Below are positions 45,085-49,251 of a stretch of 64,000 nucleotides of DNA, in pieces. A program made the position numbers and the translations under genes. The stretch covers positions 64,001 through 128,000 of the forward strand of contig CAZALK010000012.1 of the NCBI GenBank assembly GCA_964486045.1, in the 5' to 3' direction. Each line of letters starts with the position of its first letter. Position 1 is the first letter of the stretch. The stretch comes from an uncultured archaeon. Lineage in GTDB: Archaea; Asgardarchaeota; Lokiarchaeia; Sigyniarchaeales; SOKP01. Under the pieces are notes generated by a model. It saw nothing but the letters and a program-made list of their open reading frames with translations. It did no database searches and was not told where the DNA came from.

Positions 45085-45756
45085 TTGATTATAGTAGAAA
45101 TTGCTATTACAAAAATGATAAATAATAATTTGAATCATCGAATTATCGATGAAAAAACGCTTGAAAAAGCTTTTCAAACCGGTACAACAACAGTAGGGAT
45201 AATTGTAAAAGAGGGGGTAGTTATTGGAACTGAAAGCCAGGCTTCGGCAGGTTTTCTAGTTGCCTCAAAGCAAGCACAGAAATTATTTGAAATAAATCAA
45301 TTTACTGCGGCTACAATTGCTGGCGGTGTAGCAGACTGTCAGTACGTAATTAATCAGCTCAAAGCTTTATCTCGCTTAAAAGAAGTAGAGGAGGAGGTGG
45401 TACCCGAGCCTAAATACATTGCGAGTGTTTGTCGTAATATACTTTTTAGCGGTCGAAGTTTTTTCATGAGCATGATGATAGTCGGTGGTTATTCACAAAA
45501 GGGACAATCAGGAATGTTGACAGGTATAGACATGTTAGGAACCTTGTATGAAGAGGACAGCTTTATATCTTTTGGAAGTGGTTCACCCTTTTCTCTAGGC
45601 GTGTTGGAGGCTGATTGGAAACCAAACATGTCTAAAACAGAAGGTGTTGAACTCATCAAAACAGCAATCTCAACTTCGAGAGAACGAGATGCTGGTTCTG
45701 GTTTTAAAATCCAACTTTGCACAATTAATAAAAATGGTTTCAAACAGGTTGAATAA
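45085..45756 (+). CDS. psmB: Proteasome beta subunit (probable start ATG 45115)
   Basis: Propeptide followed by TG|TTTVG; AGGVAD, GSGS and RDAGSG motifs. Confidence 0.93.
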   Translation: MIIVEIAITKMINNNLNHRIIDEKTLEKAFQTGTTTVGIIVKEGVVIGTESQASAGFLVASKQAQKLFEINQFTAATIAGGVADCQYVINQLKALSRLKEVEEEVVPEPKYIASVCRNILFSGRSFFMSMMIVGGYSQKGQSGMLTGIDMLGTLYEEDSFISFGSGSPFSLGVLEADWKPNMSKTEGVELIKTAISTSRERDAGSGFKIQLCTINKNGFKQVE

Positions 45757-45834
45757 TTGCATTTTTGAAATTCCTTAGGAATATTCAAAATTTTATTTAG
45801 ATAAATTTTTAGTAGAATCAACTACATCTTTGCT

Positions 45835-46350
45835 CTAGCTGACTTTTAGTTGAATTTGTTGAATCTCTTCTTCCAAATAAATAAATCCATTTATTTCAAA
45901 ATTACTTCCATCCATTATCGTCCAAATTTGATTTTTAAAGGGTACTTTCGTCATCAGGGATGAGTTTAACACAGTTTCGTAAAAATCATCTAAATATTCC
46001 ATATAATTGACATCAAATCCACTTGGATATGACCCAACGGGGTGGGAATGAAAAATACTTAAAACTCGTCTTTTATATTTTTCATTAGCATTTTTCATTA
46101 TCCTGTATAATTCTTCAATATTTTCCATTAAGAAATTAACTGGGGAGCTTTGATCTGATCTAATGCACTCAATGATCTCCCCAAAGTAGTGATATTGATA
46201 TTTTCCGGGATTATCTAAGATGATTTCTTTTGGTTGAGGTCCTAAAATCAACCCAAAAGCTTCATTAGGACTAGCATTTTGAACACAACCCTTCATATTT
46301 CCATAAATTTCTGGATCAATATAGAAAACTATATCTTTTTGATATTTCAT
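45835..46350 (-). CDS. JAMM/MPN+ metalloprotease
   Basis: PNEAFGLILG and FHSHP...PSGFD JAMM motif. Confidence 0.9.
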   Translation of the reverse strand: MKYQKDIVFYIDPEIYGNMKGCVQNASPNEAFGLILGPQPKEIILDNPGKYQYHYFGEIIECIRSDQSSPVNFLMENIEELYRIMKNANEKYKRRVLSIFHSHPVGSYPSGFDVNYMEYLDDFYETVLNSSLMTKVPFKNQIWTIMDGSNFEINGFIYLEEEIQQIQLKVS

Positions 46351-46375
46351 TTTTTTTCGATTCTTATATTAAATT

Positions 46376-47059
46376 TTATATTAGGGTTAGAGCCGCATTA
46401 AGAGTTGCAATTCTCGCTTTTTGAGGACTATCTCCAGAACCAATTGCAACTACATCATTGTTTTCTAATTTAACCTTTCTCTCAGTCAATTTAGATTCAA
46501 AGTATTTTTGGAGTTCTTTATTTACTATCGAGTCATTATTACTAATTCCAGAATAAGATTTTGATGGAAAAATTAGATTTTTTCCACTATAAACTAAACA
46601 TGTTGCTCCAAAACCATTTATTTTGATTGCTGCGTCTCTTTGATTGATACCATCAGTTATTTTATGACTTGCATTTTTCACTAAACAAAAATATACTGAT
46701 GTTTCTTCAGGTTCAACAATTATATCCTTAAGCACAGAAGATTCTCCTCTTTCGATTATAGGAATAATTGTTTTTATTTTTTCTAAATATTTTAATCCCA
46801 ATTCAGTTAAAACGTGCCCCTTTCTTTTTGTCTCAACAACTACAGCAACAAAATTTTTTTTCTCATTTAGTTTCTTAATTAATGACTTTGCAGTTCCTTC
46901 ACCAATCATTAATTCTTTTTGTAAGCGGTATCTTCCAATACCTTCCGGATTTTCACCAAATATAAATAAAGCTAATATAACATGAACTCTCTCAAATGAT
47001 GGTTTAATTGTAGAACTCTCGAATAGCGAATCTAATTCTTCAAACATCAATGCACTCAT
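46376..47059 (-). CDS. wHTH plus DUF4443-type protein
   Basis: IGRYRL..EL.IGEG HTH; GINQRDAAIK..G.GAT motif. Confidence 0.75.
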   Translation of the reverse strand: MSALMFEELDSLFESSTIKPSFERVHVILALFIFGENPEGIGRYRLQKELMIGEGTAKSLIKKLNEKKNFVAVVVETKRKGHVLTELGLKYLEKIKTIIPIIERGESSVLKDIIVEPEETSVYFCLVKNASHKITDGINQRDAAIKINGFGATCLVYSGKNLIFPSKSYSGISNNDSIVNKELQKYFESKLTERKVKLENNDVVAIGSGDSPQKARIATLNAALTLI

Positions 47060-48175: not shown

Positions 48176-48702
48176 CTATTTTATTACAGTTGGTTTTCTT
48201 ATTATTGGTAATGTTTATCCATGTCTTTTACTATAAAATTAAAAATAATAGTTAATTTAACTTAAATCAAGAATTAATTACAAAATTTCCTTTATTTTAC
48301 CCAATCCCCTATATTATTAAAATTAAGTTTAAAATTACTAACTATTCAAAATTGCAAAAACTCATAGTGTTACGTCTCAGATTTTGATCGAATTTTTTAA
48401 TTGTTCAAAGAGTTTCTCAATTTAATTCATTCTGAGGAAATTCTGAGACTTTTGATGATTTAAATCTTGGAATCCAACTAAAATTGCCTATCCATAAAAA
48501 GAACCTAACTTGCACGAGATTGATCAATTTCATAATTTCGAATTTTGTCGTTCAATTTTTTTTATTTTTATCCCAACAAAAGCATGAGAATATCAAAATC
48601 TTTAAATATCCAAAAGATCAATATCTATATAATAAATTCTTTAAAAATAACAAAAATTAACAAAAAGTATCACTACAAAATAAATAATTGGAGGAATAAA
48701 AA

Positions 48703-48978
48703 ATGGCTGGATCAGATTACATTTCTTGGTCACCAATAAGACGTCTCATGAAGCACAACGGGGCTGTAAGTCAATAAACCTCTTTTTGACTGGCTAAAAT
48801 CGTTGCGCGAGATGCCGTTAATGAGTTAGTTGATTGGATGGGTCAATCAGCAGAAACACTCACAAAAACCGCGTTAACTTTAACTAAACACTCTAAAATT
48901 CTTATAGGATTCCTATAAAAATAGGAAAGAAAGAAAGTAACGCGTAATGACATCTTATTGGCCATCAAGTATTTTTAA
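48703..48978 (+). CDS. Archaeal histone, 71 aa, spliced: join(48703..48767,48798..48897,48928..48978)
   Basis: GGAGG Shine-Dalgarno at 48690-48694. Spliced product MAGSDYISWSPIRRLMKHNGAVIVARDAVNELVDWMGQSAETLTKTALTLTKHSKRKKVTRNDILLAIKYF has the HMf-like histone-fold pattern (PI.RLMK..GA..V..DA; H.KRK.V...DI.LA). Confidence 0.92.
48768..48797 (+). other. 30-nt BHB-type mRNA intron 1 of the histone gene
   Basis: Intron stem AGTCAA/TTGACT, central helix GGCT/GGCT, bulges GT|A and AA|A(A), exon helix CAACGG/TCGTTG; contains in-frame TAA and TGA. Confidence 0.85.
48898..48927 (+). other. 30-nt BHB-type mRNA intron 2 of the histone gene
   Basis: Intron stem TTATAG/CTATAA, central helix TCTA/TAGG, bulges AA|A and AA|A; contains in-frame TAA and TAG. 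Confidence 0.85.
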
Positions 48979-48987
48979 AGGGATTTT

Positions 48988-49052
48988 TGAATTAGGTAAT
49001 TTACTTAATTCATTAAAATATCTAATACTCTTTTTTTTATCTTCTTTTTTTT
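48988..49052 (+). terminator. Hairpin plus oligo-T tracts after the histone gene
   Basis: TGAATTAGGTAA/TTACTTAATTCA inverted repeat at 48988-49012, followed by two long T runs. Confidence 0.5.
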
Positions 49053-49098: not shown

Positions 49099-49251
49099 AT
49101 GCTTATAGTACTTAATCTCTGTATAGGGTGCGGGGTTTGCGCTTCTAATTGTCCGTCTGGAGCAATTATGCTAGAAAAGGTTCTAGATAATATCCCTGCT
49201 AGAAATCAAACAGAAATGAGAATAAAATATATGGAAGAGAGAGTTTATTAA
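49099..49251 (+). CDS. 50-aa ORF with a single 4Fe-4S motif (small protein or 3' gene remnant)
   Basis: MLIVLNLCIGCGVCASNCPSGAIMLEKV...: CxxCxxCxxxCP; below the ORF-track size cutoff. Confidence 0.65.
   Translation: MLIVLNLCIGCGVCASNCPSGAIMLEKVLDNIPARNQTEMRIKYMEERVY

Follow-up and report, generated by a model that had tools for sequence, protein, structure and literature searches.

The histone gene at positions 48703-48978 of the window (the whole 64,000-nucleotide stretch of Promethearchaeota (Loki) DNA analysed here) yields a normal 71-aa histone only after two 30-nt inserts are removed, and the first of these is a real mini-intron that is very probably spliced. Comparison with homologues confirmed that the insert is genuine and that the gene is an archaeal HMf-type histone once both inserts are taken out.

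A histone gene interrupted by two short inserts

Read without splicing, the frame gives a 24-aa peptide that ends in AVSQ and a stop, as originally predicted. Intron 1 carries two in-frame stops (TAA at 48775-77 and TGA at 48787-89), the frame still terminates within insert 2 when insert 1 alone is removed, and retention of intron 2 gives a 61-aa protein that lacks the last helix. The spliced product reads as histone-fold sequence over its full length and matches solved archaeal histones over residues 10-68 (E 3e-5 to 5e-5), and PF00808 is present in its orthologues. The single exons are too short and gave no match in Pfam; searches of Rfam and of viral contigs also returned no match. As for the neighbourhood (Table 1 lists the features of the gene itself), a short ORF at 49099-49251 with a CxxCxxCxxxCP ferredoxin-like motif is an apparent gene fragment (74% identical in L054, a close relative), and proteasome beta-like, JAB-domain and DUF4443 genes lie upstream, at 45085-47059, in synteny with the histone in several relatives.

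Table 1 The histone gene, its two introns and the predicted RNA elements (window positions; a slash within a bulge marks the predicted cut)
Feature	Position	Strand	Remarks
Shine-Dalgarno-like GGAGG	48690-48694	+	8 nt upstream of ATG 48703; putative function, from sequence
Histone exon 1	48703-48767	+	codons 1-21 and first two bases of V22; matches intron-less orthologues
Exon-exon helix, 5' strand	48753-48761	+	wobble bases of K17, H18 and N19; in 5/7 homologues the equivalent of 48753-59 pairs with 48799-806
Exon helix, this copy	48756-61 CAACGG / 48800-05 TCGTTG	+	sequence and RNAfold
Central helix, exon strand	48762-48765 GGCT	+	G20 wobble and A21 codon
5' bulge GU/A	48766-48768	+	predicted cut after 48767, by the BHB rule (PMC2738675)
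Intron 1	48768-48797	+	30 nt; stop-bearing
Intron 1 stem	48769-77/48783-91	+	9 bp, one U-U mismatch; 5-nt loop 48778-82
Central helix, intron strand	48792-95 GGCT	+	pairs with 48762-65
3' bulge AA/AA	48796-48799	+	predicted cut after 48797; 4 nt in this copy (family consensus fold: 3 nt)
Histone exon 2	48798-48897	+	from the last base of V22 through K55; exon helix 3' strand at 48799-48808
Intron 2	48898-48927	+	30 nt; stop-bearing
Intron 2 central helix	UCUA 48892-95 / UAGG 48922-25	+	AAA bulges, 8/9-bp stem, in-frame stops
Histone exon 3	48928-48978	+	R56 to stop
T-rich tract	49031-49052	+	candidate archaeal terminator, from sequence

A predicted relaxed BHB motif at intron 1

The original prediction had described a BHB fold made of an exon helix, a central helix, an intron stem and two bulges. 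All of these elements are present, and RNAfold, applied to the junction region, gave the same fold as its minimum-energy prediction (z -2.1 to -2.5); the 6-bp stem that had been noted (AGTCAA 48769-74 / TTGACT 48786-91) is part of the 9-bp stem. When the 30 nt of intron 1 were shuffled at the fixed junction, 4/4 central pairs together with at least 8/9 stem pairs arose with P = 3e-5, and only one register of nine (shift 0 among -4 to +4) forms the motif. The pairing probability of the central helix of this copy in a 105-nt context was ~0.57 at 37 °C and 0.17 at 15 °C. Among the seven genes that carry an insert at this position, the 5' bulge is 3 nt long (GUA, UUA, UUU or AUA) and is closed by the 9-bp intron helix (HBh'). 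The strict hBHBh' form has a 3-nt 3' bulge directly closed by the exon helix; the bulge is 4 nt here, and in five others an unpaired GG lies opposite. The motif is thus of the relaxed class, HBh' with a variable exon-side helix, and not strict hBHBh'. In all seven copies the 5-nt loop (48778-48782 here) ends in UC and is followed by UU in the stem, an invariance that exceeds the needs of pairing; compared by eye, the tRNA introns of this genome showed no evident similarity to intron 1.

The exon helix is where the copies diverge. The predicted register with its relaxed 4-nt AAAA bulge is favoured (p about 0.99) only in this copy and in L054, while in five of the seven copies the helix is shifted and a 3-nt AAA bulge faces the unpaired GG, a register in which the wobble G of K17 and the C of H18 sit in G-C pairs. 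This copy and L054 share AAC19 and ATC23, and the other five have AAT19 and ATT23. Together with the folds, this split points to a change of register in this lineage through two coordinated synonymous changes, which appears to have been a single event.

The fold and the exons are conserved among homologues

Genome and metagenome searches recovered 59 distinct genes of this histone subfamily, the named relatives being Promethearchaeota (Loki) genomes: 41 are without an insert, seven have a 30-nt insert at exactly the position of intron 1, and 11 have a different insert 13 nt upstream. By a strict pattern, intron 1 occurs in 3 of 161 genomes of the class, all from one genus; related inserts of 29 and 31 nt were also found. 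The seven copies differ from each other at 0-12 of the 30 nt, and every one has in-frame stops. The central helix is paired in 28/28 cells of the seven homologues, with one both-sided change, and the 9-bp intron stem is 93.7% paired. Over all cells, pairing reaches 96%, against 16-55% in slid controls, and five pairs show both-sided changes (the covariation shuffles ignore relatedness). Among the intron-bearing genes, pN/pS in the exons is 0.035-0.17, which means that they are not decaying but under purifying selection.

Homologues also fix the reading of the junction. With a BHB cut, codon 22 encodes V, L or I, the three residues seen there most often (108 of 120 database homologues), whereas a cut one base earlier would leave E, K or a stop, none of which was seen in homologues. 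The prediction of a BHB-type mRNA intron with half of its motif in coding sequence and a junction at 48767/48798 therefore agrees with the only register that forms the motif. Removal of 48769-48798 would give the same mRNA as removal of 48768-48797, so that in this copy the +1 register is indistinguishable at the mRNA level.

Several rival readings were considered. Programmed translational bypassing is known from T4 gene 60 and from yeast mitochondrial byps, and a ribosome might likewise hop from GCT 48763-65 to the in-frame GCT 48793-95: matched GCT codons lie 30 nt apart in 5/7 copies, and a hairpin and a stop follow the take-off codon. We hold this to be highly improbable, since the codon match is lost in the other two copies (GTT, GTC) with the pairing kept, the hop would place Lys at codon 22 (0/120 homologues), and in every copy the two bases that follow the central helix preserve a hydrophobic codon, which argues that they are translated. 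Stop-codon readthrough was rejected, because the position and type of the stop vary and the 29- and 31-nt relatives shift the frame. That small hairpin insertions have turned the gene into a pseudogene, or that the insert is an assembly artefact, with histone supplied by intact paralogues, would fit the in-frame stops and the four intact histone genes of the genome; yet seven diverged copies come from independent assemblies, their exons have the low pN/pS given above, further lesions are absent and the fold is kept by covariation, all of which make it extremely improbable. Patchy presence and close relatives without the insert might instead suggest removal by another route, either by excision from the DNA, precise and confined to some members of the population, or through RNA splicing by an enzyme different from EndA/RtcB. 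This too is very unlikely: terminal repeats and target duplications are absent, only one register has a geometry that obeys the EndA rule, and what the intron-less relatives have are distinct coding alleles, not clean excisions. Splicing of intron 1 out of the mRNA, with cleavage, ligation and the identity of the enzyme deduced from sequence, is the reading we consider very likely.

Synonymous codons beside the junction follow the intron

All seven genes with intron 1 use AAG at K17, CAC at H18, GGR at G20 and GCT at A21, against 6, 25, 9 and 18, respectively, of the 41 intron-less genes, and the stretch with all four biased codons (AAG-CAC-AAY-GGR-GCT) is found in 7/7 of the former and 1/41 of the latter. 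Four of the five most biased codons of the gene fall within this five-codon stretch (K17-A21). On the other side of the junction, I23, V24 and A25 are unbiased and vary as in intron-less genes, with the exception of AAC19 together with ATC23 in one lineage. The original prediction named HNG/IVA as the codons constrained by pairing; the bias is in fact seen at the wobbles of K17, H18, G20 and A21 and not at I23, V24 and A25, and since the HNG/IVA amino acids are invariant with or without the intron, the RNA could drive synonymous choice only. The exon-exon duplex has -5.1 to -10.2 kcal/mol (mean -7.5) in genes with intron 1, compared with a mean of -3.3 in those without (2/41 overlap), and the full central helix would form in only 4-9 of the 41 intron-less flanks. 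Genes with the intron 13 nt upstream are the mirror image: their exon duplex has -8.5 to -14.2 kcal/mol at the upstream site but just -1.4 to -3.0 at that of intron 1, and they use CGY14 in 11/11 (2/41 in intron-less genes) and CAT18 and GGC20 in 11/11 (10/41).

On a coding tree built with the junction codons left out, the genes with intron 1 do not form one clade (four changes, AU p = 0.006), and intron status changes five times on the tree of the upstream neighbour gene. The intron-type flank is present in all six syntenic carriers and in 0/16 non-carriers, and in L057 three of the nine codons that differ from its intron-less sister are K17, H18 and G20. Comparing synonymous sites between intron-bearing and intron-less orthologues, the check proposed at the outset, yields a bias, although there are only three independent phylogenetic pairs and a sign test cannot reach significance with them; the predicted codon constraint is partly supported, and the association is a strong description rather than a significant phylogenetic test.

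Loki_b32 (L011/L039) and L045 each have a tandem histone pair in which the upstream copy has intron 1 and the downstream copy has none. The intron-less tandem copy of Loki_b32, L011, has the full intron-type flank, suggesting gene conversion or recent loss. L014 and L013, close relatives of this genome by the neighbour gene (76-77% identity), have histone alleles that lack the intron and group elsewhere on the coding tree, which suggests that the whole allele has been replaced at this locus.

The intron may be real and the codon bias historical, either because the intron moves by recombination with ~15 nt of upstream flank among histone alleles and paralogues, or because gain is possible only in a flank that already pairs, with little continuing selection on wobbles. 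We consider this account possible, though on balance doubtful, in both forms. The scattered intron status on both trees speaks for it, as do the introns of distant lineages, which differ at just 5-6 of 30 nt, the one-sided (5') bias and the homogenised tandem copies of Loki_b32. Against it, the biased sites are the paired ones, and the adjacent unpaired bulge base (first base of codon 22) varies between G, T and A and in L057 is that of the intron-less sister; the four sites are moreover fixed among L009, L010, L052 and L054, genes that differ at up to 28-32 of ~44 synonymous sites. Most of the codon pattern is expected alike from selection for pairing and from co-transfer of the flank; the present data do not separate the two, and the historical account and the favoured explanation are not mutually exclusive. 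The variable unpaired base beside the junction and the long persistence of the four biased sites favour selection as the cause of the bias.

Candidate splicing machinery and further introns of the family

The genome encodes two EndA-family genes, on C7 and C10, and RtcB. One EndA subunit has catalytic-type Tyr/His/Lys motifs, and one of its loops can be aligned with the specificity loop (CSL) of Aeropyrum pernix, including its Lys, while the second subunit is without the His. Together they are predicted to form a broad-specificity (alpha-beta) EndA able to cut relaxed motifs, as this enzyme type does elsewhere (PMC6379350); the same type has been tied to the splicing of cbf5 (PMC2738675). In our proposal, a histone mRNA carries insert 1 as a mini-intron of the tRNA type. 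Folding of the pre-mRNA would bring one exon strand and one intron strand together in a 4-bp central helix, with the 9-bp intron hairpin closing it on one side and the exon-exon helix on the other; alpha-beta EndA would cut after the second base of each bulge, and RtcB would join the exons. It is the EndA and RtcB of this genome that would presumably act on this RNA, and intron 2 would be removed by the same route.

The intron 2 motif was obtained with P = 5e-5 when inserts were shuffled at the fixed junction. Intron 2 has only a minimal helix on the exon side, and homologous inserts occur in L010 (31 nt) and L054. Overall, the introns of the family occupy four coding positions (52, 65, 163-165 and 183). 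The closest paralogue (L005, C6:146563-146835 of this genome) has two other inserts, at positions 52 and 183; others occur among L042-L069, with 29-nt variants in L048/L049, and on the LAZR (Loki's Castle metagenome) contigs L056 and L059. Two histone genes, at L084:1357-1575 and L088:601-840, are interrupted just once, by 30 nt at position 183, and have been deposited at NCBI as truncated histones of 61 and 60 aa (MFX0023957.1, MFX1457269.1). The 'C-terminally truncated' Loki histone HLkE (KKK41979.1, PMC6136690) may be a further such case. A motif-only scan of the genome, run without a null, gave 90 candidates that are mostly noise and are not counted as evidence. Its top three matches are 30-nt inserts that join long frames (C7 ~186752, minus strand; C3 ~186174, plus; C13 ~44100, plus), which by eye and by motifs read like AMP/thymidine phosphorylase, thiolase and RNA polymerase large subunit, respectively.

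Position in the protein and histone supply

In alignments with solved histones, the junction falls at the GAxxVS loop, which links helices 1 and 2. An AlphaFold model of an intron-less orthologue merged these two helices and did not resolve L1, and the tentative assignment to L1 comes from the alignment together with the known HMf fold. A meaningful placement in L1 was considered and rejected, because introns of the family are found at four positions and no full protein ever results from retention.

Both cuts are required in this gene, and the closest paralogue is interrupted too, which leaves the subfamily wholly interrupted in this genome; to this extent the claim that histone expression depends fully on splicing is borne out. 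It does not extend to the cell: four intron-free canonical histone genes are intact in the genome, and these, along with the intron-less tandem copy in Loki_b32, indicate that histone supply is not fully splicing-dependent. Two further genes of this genome (L007 and L008, on C6) are histone-like, intact and divergent; they are ~65 codons long and score weakly against PF00808.

Discussion

The closest known system is the cbf5 pre-mRNA intron of Crenarchaeota (Watanabe 2002; Yokobori 2009, PMC2738675), with which the histone introns share a short coding-region intron, a BHB-like motif that is partly exon, cuts after the second bulge base, a hetero-oligomeric EndA and patchy gain and loss. Here, in contrast, the lineage is Asgard and the gene a histone, a 71-codon mRNA has two introns, at least four intron positions of near-constant length (29-31 nt) occur in one histone subfamily, scattered among the species of one genus, and splicing is predicted from sequence. 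Non-canonical archaeal tRNA introns (hBH, HBh' and BHL motifs; PMC6379350) and Asgard tRNA introns (bioRxiv 10.64898/2026.10.13.758758) have in common with them the 4-bp central helix, the 3-nt bulge and the intron-side helix, as well as the need for a motif-permitting exon for removal and repeated gains; they differ in that the host RNA here is an mRNA, so that the exon constraint falls on synonymous codons. The BHB intron in the 5' UTR of Haloferax volcanii HVO_1309 (PMC7714728) shares the action of EndA on an mRNA, which is predicted here, but lies in a UTR, with the reading frame intact and codons unconstrained.

Our literature searches, which covered mainly freely accessible papers, found no Asgard mRNA or histone introns; in the searchable papers, archaeal coding-region BHB splicing was reported for cbf5 only, plus the one UTR intron in Haloferax, and neither the 2026 preprint on Asgard tRNA introns nor another from 2026 on Asgard histones mentions mRNA or histone introns. 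In eukaryotes, the non-spliceosomal splicing of HAC1/XBP1 is stress-regulated, with IRE1 cutting at two stem-loops. It likewise uses an endonuclease and a tRNA ligase to remove a short frame-breaking intron, and differs in the cutting by IRE1 and in the stress regulation; for the histone introns, we found no evidence of regulated splicing.

A broader hypothesis, which we offer as rather improbable, is that the 30-nt elements are mobile EndA-spliced mRNA introns. They would have spread among Loki histone alleles with short flanks, rewriting synonymous codons locally and putting the whole subfamily (both copies, four introns) under tRNA-splicing control, with splicing efficiency setting the mix of histone variants. 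More immediately, this archaeal gene makes the control of synonymous codons by RNA structure measurable: the same codons are spelled differently with each of two introns that lie 13 nt apart, so that short RNAs and recombinant EndA can put the constraint to a direct test. Annotation is affected too, since genes of this kind are overlooked or, like the two noted above, deposited as truncated histones, so that Asgard histone inventories and their 'truncated variants' may need to be re-checked.
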